DNA of 56,927 bases from an uncultured Gammaproteobacteria bacterium (GTDB taxonomy: Bacteria > Patescibacteriota > Patescibacteriia > Magasanikbacterales > GWA2-37-8): positions 1 through 56,927 of the forward strand of contig CAZETA010000004.1 in assembly GCA_964514995.1 (NCBI GenBank), written 5' to 3'. The translations under genes were made by a program, and so were the position numbers. Below, piece by piece: positions 3,944 through 44,436 of this stretch (position 1 is the stretch's first letter; each line of letters opens with the position of its first letter). A model generated the notes under the pieces. The model made no database searches, had not been told where the DNA came from, and saw nothing but the letters and a program-made list of their open reading frames with translations.

Positions 3944-5407
3944 TTAAACAATCTCCAAATCCAAAACCTGATCAATTTTTATCTGATCCACAAATTCAGG
4001 GACGTGGCTGACCAGAATTATCGCGCCTTCAAATTCATCCAAGGCCTTAGCGATAATTGGTAGGTGGCGGAAGTTTATGTGATTGGTCGGTTCGTCCATG
4101 ATAAGCAGTCCTGGTTTTTGCAAGACAAATCTGGCATAGCAGAGCAAACCTTTCTGGCCCTCAGACAGTGACCCGACTTTATTTTTTAATATTTGTGAAG
4201 ATAACAAGAATTGCGCGCCCGTGGCATATATTTCCTGGTTCCACGGATTATGCATCATTTCTTCTAGTGCCTGATAGCCGGTTTTATCAAAATCAAGACC
4301 GGAAAAATCCTGGCGGTAGTAGCCGACACGGACGTCTGGGGCGATAGTTGCGCCTTCCTCGGTACCGCTCGCCAAAGCTTGTAGTAGGGTGCTTTTGCCA
4401 ATGCCGTTCGGTCCTTTGAGGAGCAGGCGTTGTCTCTTGCGAACAGTAATCGGTGTGGATAGAGTAATACGTACTGGTTCGTGGTTTTTCATCACACCCA
4501 CCGATCGTATCTCTACAAAGGGAACAATAATCTCAGGTTGGGAAGGGATAGTGAAGTCATTTATGGTTTTATCCTCCTGCCTCTCATCAACCATATTTTC
4601 CTCAGCCTCTTCTATTTGGTCGCGTAGTTTGCTGGCCAGTGCGCGCATCTTGCCGCCCTTATTGGCAAAAAAATTTACTTTGTCTTTTCTGTCCTGGATA
4701 CTGCGGCGGAGTTGGGCATTTTTGGCGCGTTCACGCTCGATACGAGCTTCGATTTCTCCTAGCACATTATAGTAGTCGCCCACGTACTGTTCCACTTTTT
4801 GTGTGTATGAATCCAGATAGAGGACGCCGTCGGTAAAGGCGTTGAGAAAATTTGCATCGTGGGAAATGACCATGCATGTTTTGGGATATTGCATCAGAAA
4901 TGCCGTCAGGTGTTCGATGCCGGCTGTATCAAGATTATTAGTCGGTTCATCCAGGAGTAAGATATCTGGTTTTTGGATGAGGGCATAGGCAAGGAGCAGT
5001 CTCGCTTGTTGGCCGCCGGAAAATTGTTTGATTTTTTTATCAAGGGGGGCGGTGAGATGGACAATGTCGAGAACTTCGGAAATACGTTTTGGCAAGTCAT
5101 ACATTTTCTTTTCGAATAACTGAGCAAAAAATTCTTCTACTGTTTTTTCCAAGTTATCTTGTTTCATGACCTGGGTGGCGATGGCGATCGTTGCGCCGAG
5201 ACTAATATTAACTTGCCCTGATTCGGGCTTGATTTCGTTGGTAATGAGCTTGAAAATCGTGCTTTTTCCAGCCCCGTTTTGTCCCATGATGGTGATTTTT
5301 GAGTTTGTACGGACAGAAAAACTAGCCTCATCAAGAATGGGTTTGTTTTCGGTATACGAGAATGAAACATTGTCGAAGCTGATAATGACGTTGCCTGGTT
5401 GACTCAT
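3944..5407 (-). CDS. ABC-F family ATPase (two nucleotide-binding domains, no membrane domain)
   Basis: Two Walker A sites (GQNGAGKST, GPNGIGKST), two signatures (FSGGQQAR, LSEGQKG) and two Walker B sites (LLLDEPTN, LIMDEPTN) with a charged linker. Start placed at MSQPGNVI (5407), because the 24 upstream codons of the ORF look non-coding. Confidence 0.85.
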   Translation of the reverse strand: MSQPGNVIISFDNVSFSYTENKPILDEASFSVRTNSKITIMGQNGAGKSTIFKLITNEIKPESGQVNISLGATIAIATQVMKQDNLEKTVEEFFAQLFEKKMYDLPKRISEVLDIVHLTAPLDKKIKQFSGGQQARLLLAYALIQKPDILLLDEPTNNLDTAGIEHLTAFLMQYPKTCMVISHDANFLNAFTDGVLYLDSYTQKVEQYVGDYYNVLGEIEARIERERAKNAQLRRSIQDRKDKVNFFANKGGKMRALASKLRDQIEEAEENMVDERQEDKTINDFTIPSQPEIIVPFVEIRSVGVMKNHEPVRITLSTPITVRKRQRLLLKGPNGIGKSTLLQALASGTEEGATIAPDVRVGYYRQDFSGLDFDKTGYQALEEMMHNPWNQEIYATGAQFLLSSQILKNKVGSLSEGQKGLLCYARFVLQKPGLLIMDEPTNHINFRHLPIIAKALDEFEGAIILVSHVPEFVDQIKIDQVLDLEIV

Positions 5408-42200: not shown

Positions 42201-43117
42201 CAGATTTTTCAGATAATGGTGCGTTAACTTTGTTTGAGAAAGATTCTGCGAGCAGTATTATACATACTAGCTTCAAAAACGGTGATCGCGCTGTTGAGTC
42301 GGAAGCCAGTAATCTATCAATCCTTGATTCTATTTTTGAAAACTTTACCCATAGTAACGGGCCGCTGTATATAAAAGACAAATGGCCGACATTATCAAAT
42401 TTACAATATCATAATAATGTTTTGAATATGCCATTTTTGGAATCAGTCACCATTACCGAACCCGATGTTTCGATCGGCGAGTCAGAGAATGTTTTAGCTA
42501 ATATTTTGAAGGTGTCTACGTCTTCGACCCTGCATATCGAACCAGGCGCTGCGTTCTATATGCCTCTATATGGTATTATGGAAGTTAGAGGTGCTATCGT
42601 TGCAGAAGGAACAGCCGAGAAGCCGATAAATTTTTTGCCGTATCCCTCTACGATAAATTGGGGCAATATTCGTTTGTATGGCGCGCAAGCAATATTTGAT
42701 CATGTGAATTTTGTCCAAGGCAATCGTCTGAATGGCCGACCGGAAAATTTGAACGGCATGATCATTGCTAATGATTCGAATCTAGTAATAAATAATTCCA
42801 ATCTGTCTGATAGCGAATCAAACTCTATCCAGAGCAATAATTCCATCGTCCAGATTTCAAATGCCAATATCAGTGTCACGACAAAGGCCAATAACACTCG
42901 AGGTGTTAAAGCGGGGACTGGTCGTATAAATTTAGATAATGTTAATTTTAATAATTTGTATATCGGCATGGAAAGCGGATCTTCAGACTTGACACAGCTA
43001 CTGGTGGATGTTCAGAACATGTCCTCCTCCAGCTTCTCAAACGTCGACTACTTCTGGCAACCATTTAATCTTTGGAGTTTTCCACCACCAAATGTTGAAA
43101 ATTTAGTTAACCTATAA
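39263..43117 (+). CDS. Large secreted multidomain surface protein: Zn-phospholipase-C-like N-domain, Pro/Thr-rich linker, lamin-tail domain, parallel beta-helix C-terminal region
   Basis: 1284 aa. Signal peptide MKGGAVFLLLSLFLFHPVLA. ALGHVLHLVEDVTVPDHVRDDSH metal-site-like motif. PPAQPVEVPKAPVLVLPAPE...TTTPPPTTSTS linker. VVINEVAWAGT...DEWFELYNNTDQPIDFTGWKV matches the LTD pattern. The C-terminal ~450 aa is Asn/Ser/Ile-periodic and beta-helix-like. Confidence 0.8.
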   Translation: MKGGAVFLLLSLFLFHPVLAYDQHSTHPSLTQEMVEFFNGTNTQTSRKLSTSEAQWLKQGAVDEDEPARWINHFYDPVHGVGWSGKHFGRLSTEEGYKKGGDIAPRHSIPSVDWVTNQDYQSAYGRQFGNQTWQKAVKSYLDGDKKSAFIALGHVLHLVEDVTVPDHVRDDSHAGIEGDPGSPYEAFAKVQTDKGSLDTAEVLLKNKKSFKKLISVNQAIKDLAVQVNRNFFSEDTISNEEFLEPKIDSLTRVNKTTTEGIKIYLAKEGVYLAAQHIKGGNTIFTTVDSRFVLPSYRDHLFPEAVLTGASVINLFFDEVDKYKQHPELLESIMPNSNDSFLSALAQFPKRTVIKACGISESTCKQMYNSLDNIADAIKNTSQTITAGLANTLNTILDSAKTKLGLSSSQPISLNTPQLAESSALIGPLVNQPLLTVQTPGIVLGEKISANQPPAQPVEVPKAPVLVLPAPEIKKESVPVAPVPVQNNIFQGSSLVSTRPEPVASNLSENESVVDTTTVGTTTPVVEDVFTTTTPPPTTSTSITVPNTTLEIITTTRPEEVVMDNSPPLIPVLSFLNQSGVSSTDIIINVQSSDISLPIYFDVEIASSTVDPWQLLVSSTTSTSIPFSGRRGQVYYFRARAMDAVGHISDWSPTSSPVSVNWSQEVVINEVAWAGTGVSYPNDEWFELYNNTDQPIDFTGWKVLVSGKEISISKMNNKIIPANGYYLFERTSDDTVKQINADAVYKLTGGFGNGGEKIELIKPNGEKADEVNASEGWFAGDAVLYRSMERIGPLVDGNNPANWQTNQGFRETGRTFNGGQIYGSPKRSNFGFITLNFNQDDAVRTLTKANNPYILQSYVIPVGKSLIIEPGVVLKSYYNPAKIDVFGNLQVLGSAEEKVVFTSGRDAQVGAGAVNTVVGTWPSPTSSPQDWQGLWFHSGSTGILDHISMRYAGKGFVVPPNALPVSQAIRSEGANLLISDSDFSDNGALTLFEKDSASSIIHTSFKNGDRAVESEASNLSILDSIFENFTHSNGPLYIKDKWPTLSNLQYHNNVLNMPFLESVTITEPDVSIGESENVLANILKVSTSSTLHIEPGAAFYMPLYGIMEVRGAIVAEGTAEKPINFLPYPSTINWGNIRLYGAQAIFDHVNFVQGNRLNGRPENLNGMIIANDSNLVINNSNLSDSESNSIQSNNSIVQISNANISVTTKANNTRGVKAGTGRINLDNVNFNNLYIGMESGSSDLTQLLVDVQNMSSSSFSNVDYFWQPFNLWSFPPPNVENLVNL

Positions 43118-43124
43118 TACATAT

Positions 43125-43150
43125 AAAACCCCTCTGGCCAGAGGGGTTTT
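43125..43150. terminator. Rho-independent terminator after the giant gene
   Basis: AAAA-CCCCTCTGG/CCAGAGGGG-TTTT (stem 43129-43146), 8 nt after the stop codon. Confidence 0.8.
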
Positions 43151-43195
43151 ATATTATCAGAAGGTGATATTTTTGGAATTACCAATATTCTGTCA

Positions 43196-43224
43196 TTGAC
43201 ATTTTATAAAAAAACGTGTATCCT
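43196..43224 (+). promoter_or_regulatory. sigma70-type promoter candidate driving the GC-rich segment
   Basis: TTGACA (43196-43201), 17-nt spacer, TATCCT (43219-43224). The G+C jump begins a few nt downstream. Confidence 0.5.
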
Positions 43225-43243
43225 CACGACCCACAGGAGGTTC

Positions 43244-43492
43244 ATGATGTCCGAGCAGCGAGACTGGCAGCGTAGCAGGAGGCAGATGGGCCCGCGTCGT
43301 CGCAGGCAAAAGAGGCACCCGCTTCCCTGGATCTGCAAGATCCTGCTGATGAAGATGGTCGCCTGCAGCACGGCGGCACCGGTGTATGAGCCATGCAACG
43401 GGGTCAATGCTGGAAGTGCGCATGTCTGCAAGTCGTGCGCCGGTCGTCGTCGGCCCCGTACGAGCCGTAGAGTACACACCTCGAAGATCTAA
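43244..43492 (+). CDS. Candidate small Arg/Cys-rich protein (82 aa), no recognised family
   Basis: AGGAGG at 43235-43240, then ATGATG (43244/43247). MMSEQRDWQRSRRQMGPRRRRQKRHPLPW...CKSCAGRRRPRTSRRVHTSKI. Hand-counted GC3 is about 74% in this frame against about 63% overall. Both CGT-CGT Arg runs are in this frame. Could instead be part of a structured RNA. Confidence 0.35.
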   Translation: MMSEQRDWQRSRRQMGPRRRRQKRHPLPWICKILLMKMVACSTAAPVYEPCNGVNAGSAHVCKSCAGRRRPRTSRRVHTSKI

Positions 43493-43509
43493 CCGAGGAG
43501 GAGTGGGGC

Positions 43510-43641
43510 ATGATGCACCACGTTCGCGGGCCGCCGTCGGCTCAAGGGTGGAGCGAGACTCCGTTCGCAACACCTGATTTGTTTCCAAATATTGGGCACA
43601 GATCAGGGAGGATTTACGCGAACGGAGTTTTGTTTTTTTAA
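43510..43641 (+). CDS. Candidate 43-aa peptide, no recognised family
   Basis: GAGGAGGAG (43495-43503), 6-nt spacer, ATGATG. MMHHVRGPPSAQGWSETPFATPDLFPNIGHRSGRIYANGVLFF. The reading frame runs through the terminator hairpin and stops in its T-tract, which weakens the coding call. Confidence 0.22.
   Translation: MMHHVRGPPSAQGWSETPFATPDLFPNIGHRSGRIYANGVLFF
43559..43639 (+). terminator. Compound (two-tier) rho-independent terminator closing the GC-rich unit
   Basis: Outer stem CTCCGTTCGC (43559-43568) / GCGAACGGAG (43618-43627). Inner stem CCTGATTTGT (43573-43582) / ACAGATCAGG (43598-43607). Followed by TTTTGTTTTTTT (43628-43639). Confidence 0.65.
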
Positions 43642-43755
43642 AGTTTATGAATCTATTATATATAGAATTTGCTAGCATATTTTATTTGTCCCCATTATCT
43701 TCTTGGGGCTTTTTCTGAAATATGGTACACTGAATGTACTTGTATTTTTTGCGTT

Positions 43756-44436
43756 ATGATAAAACTTACTGGAGTTACTAAAATCTATCCGACAGGCACG
43801 CCAGCGGTGCGAAATCTTAACTTAAACATCGGCGCAGGGGATTTTGTTTCTATTGTCGGTCAGAGCGGTACTGGTAAGACGACACTTGTGAAGATGCTTA
43901 TTGCCGAAGAAAAGCCAAACAAAGGCACGATTGAGATCGGTGGTTGGGATATCACCCGCATCAGTCCGAGCGATGTGCCGTATCTGCGCCGCCAAATAGG
44001 CGTGGTATTTCAGGATTATAAGTTGTTGCCGCAGAGGACAGTATATGAAAATATTGCTTTTGCCCTTGAGGTGGCGGGAGAGAAGAAGCAGCGCATCCAT
44101 CAGGTTGTGCCTCAGGTTTTGGAAATCGTTAATTTATCGCATAAAGCCGACAGTTATCCGTTTCAGTTGTCCGGCGGAGAACAGCAGCGTACGGCTATTG
44201 CCAGGTCGCTGGTGCATCGACCAAAGATTATCGTGGCTGATGAGCCGACTGGTAATCTTGATTCCATCAATACCGAAGAAGTTATTTCTATTTTGAAAAA
44301 AATCAACGAATTTGGCACGACGATTATTTTGGTTACTCATAACCGAGAAGTGGTAAATCATTTGCGTCGTCGGGTGATTACACTCCACGGCGGTGAGATT
44401 ATCAACGACGAAGATGGAGGAAAGTATAAGTTGTGA
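43756..44436 (+). CDS. ftsE: Cell-division ABC transporter ATP-binding protein FtsE
   Basis: Start placed at MIKLTGVTKIY (43756). Walker A GQSGTGKTT, LSGGEQQR, Walker [13 protein letters not shown]. Followed by ftsX. Confidence 0.92.
   Translation: MIKLTGVTKIYPTGTPAVRNLNLNIGAGDFVSIVGQSGTGKTTLVKMLIAEEKPNKGTIEIGGWDITRISPSDVPYLRRQIGVVFQDYKLLPQRTVYENIAFALEVAGEKKQRIHQVVPQVLEIVNLSHKADSYPFQLSGGEQQRTAIARSLVHRPKIIVADEPTGNLDSINTEEVISILKKINEFGTTIILVTHNREVVNHLRRRVITLHGGEIINDEDGGKYKL

Follow-up and report, generated by a model that had tools for sequence, protein, structure and literature searches.

A small orphan gene with a conserved 3′ hairpin module beside a giant-protein gene in a patescibacterial contig

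We have analysed a short G+C-rich segment (positions 43196–43641) in a 56,927-nt stretch of DNA from an uncultured member of the Magasanikbacterales (contig CAZETA010000004.1, assembly GCA_964514995.1); the whole stretch is referred to below as the window. The host genome is close to Candidatus Magasanikbacteria (Patescibacteria, or candidate phyla radiation, CPR), and its FtsE is 90% identical to that of the metagenome-assembled genome JACOYB01. The best explanation of the segment, to which we give a probability of about 0.6, is one small autonomous unit on the plus strand, comprising an orphan gene (open reading frame 1, ORF1), whose small product probably binds zinc and nucleic acid, and a conserved structured terminator. 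The unit is neither a new RNA class nor a two-peptide module.

In the arrangement that we propose, a sigma-70-type promoter would drive an mRNA whose main product is ORF1. The 3′ end of this mRNA would be a 150-nt module that begins with a Shine-Dalgarno (SD) sequence and the first 8–9 mini-ORF codons, so positioned that their translation could be coupled to the ORF1 stop; ribosomes could re-initiate after that stop, and the stop of a radical-SAM gene at another locus (L023) is similarly arranged. Next would come a two-tier hairpin of 25 bp, its internal loop asymmetric and SD-like, and a U-tract; the hairpin would be a strong intrinsic terminator, stabilise the 3′ end and keep the unit insulated from ftsEX. 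The module may be a portable cassette end, as other Patescibacteria have it 3′ of a radical-SAM gene that is GC-rich but unrelated to ORF1. We infer the binding of zinc and of nucleic acid, termination and insulation, and any interplay between ORF1 and the hairpin, from sequence.

The unit and its orthologue

The features are listed below. The promoter, both ORFs that open with an SD-led ATGATG, and the two-tier hairpin with its U-tract lie where an earlier sequence-only reading of this DNA had placed them.

43196–43224, plus strand: sigma-70-type promoter, TTGACA-17 nt-TATCCT (promoter scan, 10/12 matches; kept in the orthologous contig L104)
43235–43240, plus strand: SD of ORF1, AGGAGG (direct reading; AAGGAGG in L104)
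43244–43492, plus strand: ORF1 (MMSEQRDWQRSRRQMGPRRRRQKRHPLPWICKILLMKMVACSTAAPVYEPCNGVNAGSAHVCKSCAGRRRPRTSRRVHTSKI), 82 aa (81 aa from 43247), TAA at 43490–43492; conserved in L104
43495–43503, plus strand: second SD, GAGGAGGAG (with the following mini-ORF start, 93–95% identity to L104)
43510–43536, plus strand: conserved mini-ORF start, MMHHVRGPP
43537–43641, plus strand: rest of the 43-aa ORF2 (ends at 43641), frame not conserved
43555–43639, plus strand: two-tier hairpin (43555–43632) and T-tract (43628–43639), from folding, covariation and homologues
43558–43568 with 43618–43628, plus strand: outer stem
43573–43582 with 43598–43607, plus strand: inner stem
43585–43588 with 43592–43595, plus strand: apical stem
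43608–43617, plus strand: asymmetric 3′ internal loop, GAGGAUUUAC
43121–43154, no strand: perfect palindrome of 17+17 nt (ATATAAAACCCCTCTGG/CCAGAGGGGTTTTATAT) with flanking T/A runs, 3′ of the giant LTD-domain protein gene

The sole full orthologue of the unit is carried by L104, a 1287-nt metagenome contig of the Joint Genome Institute (JGI), which was reached by an exhaustive HMMER search with a minus-strand ORF of the segment (P0001) through its homologue P0028 (45% identity, E 5e-19). Read on its reverse strand, L104 holds, one after another, the C-terminal part of the same giant LTD-domain gene, its terminator, TTGACA-17-TATAAT, an SD, an 83-codon ORF, TAA, an SD, ATGATGATG, the hairpin and a T-tract. 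The promoter hexamers occupy the same alignment columns in both sequences (27/37 positions identical over 43196–43232), as do the SD, start and stop of ORF1. From 5′ to 3′, the identity between the window and L104 is 50% in the upstream flank, 73% in the promoter, 69% in ORF1, 95% in the second SD, 93% in the first nine mini-ORF codons, 82% in the next 22 nt, 93% in the hairpin and 59% in the downstream flank; conservation starts at about the −35 hexamer and stops at the U-tract. In the neighbouring giant gene, the proportion of synonymous differences (pS) is 0.83, i.e. saturated, and that of nonsynonymous differences (pN) is 0.125.

The unit adjoins the giant-protein gene at the same junction in the window and in L104, and the gene 3′ of it in L104 is a different one, not ftsE. 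Relatives with 92–94% identical FtsE possess neither the unit nor the giant gene and have other small genes upstream of ftsE, where they share with the window just a probable ftsE promoter motif; a search of 80 FtsE loci from GTDB species representatives gave one match, L023. Judged by this gene order, the genomic linkage of the unit is to the giant gene and not to ftsEX, a correction to the context given earlier.

ORF1 starts with ATGATG (43244–43249), the SD lying 3 nt from ATG 43244 and 6 nt from ATG 43247; the latter is the likelier start, given its better SD spacing and its alignment with the start in L104. The L104 product has 83 aa and is 56% identical to that of the window. The single indel within ORF1 is of 6 nt and in frame, whereas those of the 3′ module are of 1, 3, 2, 1 and 1 nt, and ORF1 substitutions fall on codon positions 1, 2 and 3 in numbers of 20, 21 and 36. 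The dN/dS ratio is 0.34 overall, with block values of 0.09 (N-terminal), 0.30 (C-terminal) and approx. 0.8 (middle). In a six-frame control on the two ungapped conserved ORF1 blocks of the window–L104 pair, pN/pS was 0.32 for ORF1 (Fisher p 2e-5) and 0.38 (p 6e-4) for the mirror antisense frame, which shares its wobble positions; the minus-strand frame found in databases gave 1.65 and the remaining frames 1.6–2.3, none of them significant. The ORF1 stretch has no conserved fold (RNAalifold z −0.26, pairwise column-shuffle test). From the conserved SD, start and stop, the in-frame indel, the pN/pS value and the missing fold we conclude that ORF1 is protein-coding and under purifying selection, which is where the sequence-only reading had leaned. 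That reading had proposed an alignment of homologues as the means to tell synonymous-site bias from covariation; the alignment shows a coding signal in ORF1 and covariation in the 3′ hairpin.

The segment contains the G+C peak of the 56.9 kb (64.0% at 43252–43551, the best 300-nt window), against a mean of 40.8% (s.d. 4.6 among 300-nt windows) and a runner-up outside the segment of 53.7%; G+C at third codon positions (GC3) in the ORF1 frame is 0.744, in agreement with a hand count of about 74%. Both the compositional anomaly and the description of a self-contained orphan unit running from promoter to terminator are therefore borne out. That the unit is foreign, in the sense of a recent import, is doubtful: both orthologues have 62–64% G+C and GC3 of 0.67–0.74 in surroundings of 33–41%, despite saturated synonymous sites nearby. 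Long maintenance fits better than recent import, and 62–64% G+C kept for long in AT-rich genomes points to selection on composition. In our reading, the high G+C stems from coding sequence rich in Arg, Gly, Pro, Ala and Cys together with GC-ending codons, retained by both orthologues.

The ORF1 product

Neither ORF1 nor ORF2 has a family match in Pfam, PADLOC, PHROGs, NCBIfam or PDB. The sole match of ORF1 at E up to 1 in the first four collections (DDE_Tnp_1_assoc, E 0.14) is noise, a PDB profile search gave 0 matches at E up to 10, and none was found among 5.8 billion protein clusters with either the single sequence or a two-sequence profile. At the DNA level, phage and plasmid collections gave short chance matches only; viral contigs contain neither the hairpin nor ORF1, with one chance 20-mer match in a 67% G+C phage. 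Rfam in gathering mode found just three tRNAs in the window and, in E-value mode (E up to 10) over 43050–43800, nothing above 16 bits within 43225–43640; this test covers RNase P RNA, tmRNA, 6S and the large GC-rich RNAs ROOL, GOLLD and HEARO. The homologous loci L104, L023, L101 and L130 have no Rfam match either, and ARAGORN detected no tmRNA. The earlier remark that no protein or RNA family could be recognised is upheld.

The public gene call at this place is a minus-strand ORF of 161 aa (43193–43678, P0001), which forms a singleton cluster, and an exact look-up found both ORF1 and ORF2 absent from the public protein collection. It should be noted that the wrong-strand public calls P0001 and P0028 (161 or 186 aa; L104:171–731) span promoter, ORF1 and terminator. 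The protein searches with ORF1 were probably empty because gene callers annotate the opposite strand. A conserved small CPR gene is in this way missing from public proteins, as callers that meet a GC-rich gene choose its longer antisense ORF, and the ORF1 family, being invisible to protein search, may exceed the two copies seen.

The predicted product has a pI of 11.7 and a net charge of +16.7, with 15 Arg (18%) and 5 Cys (6%), as compared with 4.3% Arg and 0.8% Cys in other genes of the window. Its codon usage departs from that of the host; all Lys codons (5/5) are AAG, vs 31% in the host. Four blocks are invariant in both orthologues (EQRxWQRSRRQMGPRRRR, PWxCK, YxPCxGVN and VCKxCxxRRRPRTSRxxHxS), the first being an arginine-rich motif at the N-terminus and the last providing an arginine-rich C-terminus (RRRPRTSR). 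The invariant cysteines C31, C51 and C62-x2-C65 have the spacing C-x19-C-x10-C-x2-C and are accompanied by one invariant His. On composition and Cys pattern alone, ORF1 is probably a small zinc-stabilised nucleic-acid-binding protein, with RNA as the likelier ligand.

A membrane peptide or signal sequence was rejected, as the hydrophobic stretch at residues 30–47 is not conserved and is replaced by an acidic/polar stretch in L104. The features of a type I toxin–antitoxin system were also looked for and not found: ORF1 is highly basic, the hydrophobic stretch is not kept and there is no minus-strand promoter-like site inside the unit. A truncated radical-SAM gene was likewise rejected, with no similarity in any frame.

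Phage Mu Com and the ribosomal proteins bL32 and bL36 are small nucleic-acid binders of the zinc-finger or zinc-ribbon type. ORF1 is similar to these in size, basic charge and four cysteines with one CxxC; it differs in its single CxxC knuckle, in the C-x19-C-x10-C-x2-C spacing, and in having no profile or PDB match and no confident AlphaFold2 model. The N proteins of phages lambda and P22 are RNA-binding proteins with an arginine-rich motif (ARM), and we take the EQRxWQRSRRQ stretch of ORF1, with its conserved Trp, to resemble the ARM of lambda N. Antiterminators of the lambda-N type bind a boxB-type hairpin through the ARM and act with Nus factors; of their features, ORF1 shows just the arginine-rich composition with a conserved Trp. 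Small arginine-rich bacterial RNA binders also include DUF1127/YjiS (PMC11707872). With the ARM proteins ORF1 shares the small size, very basic character, N-terminal Arg run, conserved Trp and a hairpin in cis, but it matches no Pfam, NCBIfam or PHROG model, that of DUF1127 included, it has four invariant cysteines, and the hairpin of the unit lacks a boxB-like GNRA loop.

One alternative is that ORF1 is an N-like arginine-rich regulator whose target is the hairpin on its own mRNA, for autoregulation or for control of read-through into downstream genes. The N-terminal motif and an elaborate conserved hairpin with an invariant internal loop in cis speak for it. We nevertheless regard it as unlikely: the same hairpin follows radical-SAM genes at loci where no ORF1 was found in the sequence examined, the downstream genes differ between the two orthologues, and AlphaFold2 gives no confident structure (pLDDT, the predicted local distance difference test, of 52). 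Should ORF1 bind the hairpin, the two would form a compact new RNA–protein pair; otherwise ORF1 would be another orphan small basic protein.

The 3′ module and the loci that share it

The plus strand of the whole segment folds better than shuffled sequences (z −3.8), mostly owing to the 3′ hairpin, and the window–L104 alignment of the 3′ module has an alifold z of −6.4 (column shuffle). The 150 nt comprising SD, mini-ORF start and hairpin are 93% identical to L104, with synonymous sites of the neighbouring gene saturated. Positions 43468–43640 match L023:6084–6259 (nhmmer, E 7.5e-8; hairpin alone, E 4e-4) and the hairpin is homologous to that of L101 (nhmmer, E 2e-3); L130 has the same hairpin architecture with a different sequence. 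In the count over four sequences, 97% of cells are paired, as compared with 34–49% in slid controls, and 6/25 pairs are changed on both sides. Compensatory changes include the outer stem of L101, where CUCCGUUCGC/GCGAACGGAG is replaced by CCCCGCUCGC/GCGAGCGGGG, and the inner stem in L101 and L023. A U-tract follows the hairpin in 5/5 homologues. The covariance model scores 90.7 bits on the plus strand vs 33 on the minus strand, and these scores, with the G-U pairs, indicate an RNA on the plus strand. As judged from the alignments, the hairpin structure is conserved with covariation, and its fold, U-tract and maintained structure are those of an intrinsic terminator, so that termination is predicted. 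The comparison with L104 also indicates that the 3′ module is under stronger nucleotide constraint than the coding part of ORF1. Such a module, more conserved than the protein that precedes it and common to radical-SAM cassettes, suggests that Patescibacteria may have a portable element for regulation or termination.

The covariance model gave no further copies, either across the 57-kb window or among 57 related loci (approx. 400 kb). A scan of JGI metagenomes with the hairpin pattern gave 25 matches, 22 of them by chance in high-G+C DNA and three at known loci (L108 and L111, both the L101 locus, and L125, which is L104).

Like other intrinsic terminators and 3′ stabiliser hairpins, this one has a G+C-rich stem followed by a U-tract at the end of its unit, and compensatory changes keep its structure. 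It differs from them in being much longer (approx. 25 bp in two or three tiers), in the invariance of its asymmetric internal loop (GAG(G)-AU-rich) and of CACCU...AGGGAG, in being 93% conserved where neutral sites are saturated, and in being common to unrelated genes of different Patescibacteria. Integron attC sites and REP/IS200-type hairpins are also imperfect two-tier inverted repeats with an unpaired asymmetric spacer, located 3′ of unrelated single-gene units. However, the R″/R′ consensus of attC (RYYYAAC...GTTRRRY) is absent from 43555–43639 and its homologues by direct reading, the hairpin is single-copy, no integrase or Y1 transposase adjoins it, and the G-U pairs favour RNA. An integron gene cassette was rejected on the missing attC core sites and the lack of a second copy in the window. 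Terminal inverted repeats bracketing the unit are absent, and no repeat within the 57-kb window involves 43196–43641; a template of a diversity-generating retroelement and a dispersed element (a repetitive extragenic palindrome, a miniature inverted-repeat transposable element or an IS200/IS605 end) were rejected on that account.

The 43-aa ORF2, previously read as the second of two small ORFs, is not a conserved gene. In L104 its frame is lost after codon 9, MM(M)HHVRGPP, through a 2-nt indel, giving 23 aa with a different tail, and at the collinear site of L023 the SD is followed by MYYNRVPP-stop, i.e. 8 codons. ORF2 also traverses both arms of the hairpin and has its stop in or after the T-tract, where transcripts should have ended. 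Beyond the first nine codons, ORF2 is probably not a functional reading frame. The spacer with the second SD and mini-ORF is not significant against L023 when taken alone (E 72), adding approx. 10 bits in the collinear alignment only.

At L023, the module lies directly 3′ of a 361-aa radical-SAM gene, which is itself downstream of ftsEX and a tRNA gene. The family of this gene is small (13 clusters) and made up of solo genes whose neighbourhoods are unrelated; in NCBIfam it comes closest to peptide maturases, with matches far below cut-off. Three of the genes end with the hairpin (L023:5023–6108, L101:3001–3975 and L130:337–1422), whereas the members in L097, L098, L102 and L103 end differently. 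The hairpin-ending genes have 53–56% G+C vs 38–45% in their hosts, and a tRNA gene adjoins in L023 and L130; the raised G+C and the tRNA neighbours suggest that they are horizontally moving cassettes. The module of the window (SD, mini-ORF, hairpin) is homologous to that after the L023 and L101 genes, and the window unit and these cassettes are alike as G+C-elevated solo genes in variable contexts. They differ in that the window has no radical-SAM gene (tblastn of the L023 protein against it, best E 0.42, away from the unit), that ORF1 is unrelated and that there is no recognisable precursor peptide. An operon for a RiPP (a peptide made by the ribosome and modified after translation), with a maturase adjoining a peptide gene, is not present in the window; such adjacency was found only in L023.

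It is conceivable that the mini-ORF peptide, M-[H/Y]-[H/Y]-x-R-x-P-P, and the hairpin together form the conserved functional product, derived from a radical-SAM/SPASM peptide-maturase operon, the peptide being a very short RiPP-like substrate or a Pro-Pro stalling leader and ORF1 a cargo in the place of the former maturase. At L023, an SD, MYYNRVPP-stop and the hairpin are collinear directly after a radical-SAM gene whose best NCBIfam matches, all far below cut-off, are the peptide maturases WgkB and SkfB; the codons for Arg and for the second Pro show synonymous differences between the window and L023, conservation of the mini-ORF start in L104 is 93%, and radical-SAM cyclophane synthases that act on His/Tyr/Trp-x-x motifs are known (PMC11499958, PMC11851443). 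This explanation appears decidedly unlikely to us, given the insignificant match of the spacer alone, the hairpins of L101 and L130 that come without a mini-ORF, and the window without a radical-SAM homologue. Furthermore, a leaderless precursor of eight residues would lack precedent, nucleotide conservation extends past the peptide irrespective of frame, and a ribosome stalled at Pro-Pro would stop approx. 20–30 nt before the hairpin.

A wider and doubtful proposal, to which we assign little weight, is that the hairpin with the upstream SD and mini-ORF forms the common 3′ end of an undescribed class of G+C-rich single-gene cassettes exchanged among Patescibacteria, with ORF1 or a solo radical-SAM gene as cargo, and that ORF1 is a new arginine-rich zinc-knuckle protein recognising the hairpin RNA, e.g. 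in control of termination or mRNA fate. The interest of the unit would grow if cassettes commonly ended in this module or if ORF1 bound it.

Several further observations were made on the radical-SAM loci. The hairpin-ending genes have only weak partial matches to pVip, confined to the core domain (E approx. 1e-9 to 1e-10). A short 5′-untranslated-region (UTR) motif, CCCACA/CACAGGAG, shared by the ORF1 and radical-SAM units is too short to judge and was dropped. In L098 (2942–2965 with 4117–4140) and L102 (2945–2966 with 4118–4139), the solo radical-SAM gene lies between 22–24-nt inverted repeats, TAAAAACAAATATTTTTAGGAAGC / GCTTCCTAAAAGTATTTGTTTTTA, which are 95–96% complementary, 1151 nt apart in both and weaker in L097; they could be terminal repeats of a cargo cassette or a 5′UTR/3′UTR panhandle. 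The stretch of L023 between ftsX and the tRNA gene, shortly upstream of its radical-SAM cassette, holds nested inverted repeats made up of four copies of TGTCATTGCGAGCG (4600–4724; arms up to 32 nt, 97% complementary). Directly 3′ of the L101 hairpin there is a 31-nt inverted repeat (4134–4236; 87% complementary, CACGA/GCACG-rich).

Opposite-strand frames, other explanations and the neighbourhood

Several points weigh against an orphan binding-protein gene with a structured terminator. ORF1 is known in two sequences only, which limits the power of the selection test, and its middle third is poorly conserved (dN/dS approx. 0.8). AlphaFold2 (single sequence) gives no confident fold, with pLDDT 52, and there is just one CxxC knuckle. 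The 93% identity of the 3′ module is between just two genomes and could be due to recent local gene conversion instead of constraint, and the presence of the hairpin after radical-SAM genes means that the module does not need ORF1. Finally, the mirror antisense frame is open in both sequences, with a pN/pS nearly equal to that of ORF1 (0.38, p 6e-4).

The last point would allow the coding frame to be the mirror antisense ORF (minus strand, 43204–43479; 91 aa in the window and 109 aa in L104), which has its third positions in common with ORF1, shows similar conserved blocks and, in L104, has GAGG a few nt 5′ of its start. Its ends, however, are not conserved: it starts with GTG at 43479 vs an ATG farther upstream in L104, and stops at 43204 vs past the promoter in L104. 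It has no promoter on its strand, its transcription would run against the strong hairpin, and the conserved −35/−10 hexamers, SD and terminator are all on the plus strand; in the N-terminal block, pN/pS is 0.09 for ORF1 vs 0.18 for the mirror frame. We consider the mirror frame a very unlikely gene.

A single structured non-coding RNA across the whole 400 nt, with ORFs that are accidents of G+C-rich sequence, had earlier been called an equally live explanation. As structural RNAs typically are, the region is G+C-rich within an AT-rich genome; folding of the plus strand gives z −3.8, and several frames are open. The fold signal, however, comes from the 3′ hairpin, the ORF1 part having no conserved fold (alifold z −0.26), there is no Rfam match in the window or the homologues and no tmRNA, and the 3-periodic substitutions, pN/pS of 0.32, in-frame indel and conserved SD, start and stop are those of a gene. 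A non-coding RNA of this extent is, in our view, most improbable, and the earlier parity between the two explanations does not hold.

That the real gene is the publicly annotated minus-strand ORF of 161 aa (P0001, homologue P0028) is scarcely credible, even though no ORF of the segment is longer and neither orthologue interrupts it (45% identity). Its pN/pS is 1.65, and its register is exactly antisense to a GC-rich gene in which TTA, CTA and TCA codons are avoided, hence its openness. It also crosses the terminator hairpin and the promoter, there is no minus-strand promoter-like site at 43640–43900, and its ends are not the same in the two orthologues. The chance of an assembly chimera or contaminant insert, for which the abrupt compositional break might speak, is negligible, as both flanks are native sequence and the unit recurs, with 69–93% identity and at the corresponding junction, in L104, an independent JGI contig; the unit is thus real.

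The palindrome at 43121–43154 lies outside the unit and looks like a bidirectional intrinsic terminator of the upstream giant gene, setting the left edge of the unit. Its sequence is not the same in L104, and identity upstream of the promoter is approx. 50%. On the other side, the motif TTTTCTGAAATATGrTACACT at 43703–43723, upstream of ftsE, is kept at collinear sites in the close relatives L001–L015, which all diverge farther upstream of it, and probably serves ftsEX as an extended −10 promoter. In the place of the giant gene and the unit, the FtsE relatives possess one or two tandem orphan genes for His-rich helical proteins of 109–113 aa upstream of ftsE (L001:2405–2734; L012:1852–2193 and 2471–2800; L014:297–635, minus strand). 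These genes have approx. 50–55% G+C and no Pfam family match, and their second copy is frameshifted in L012 and L013.

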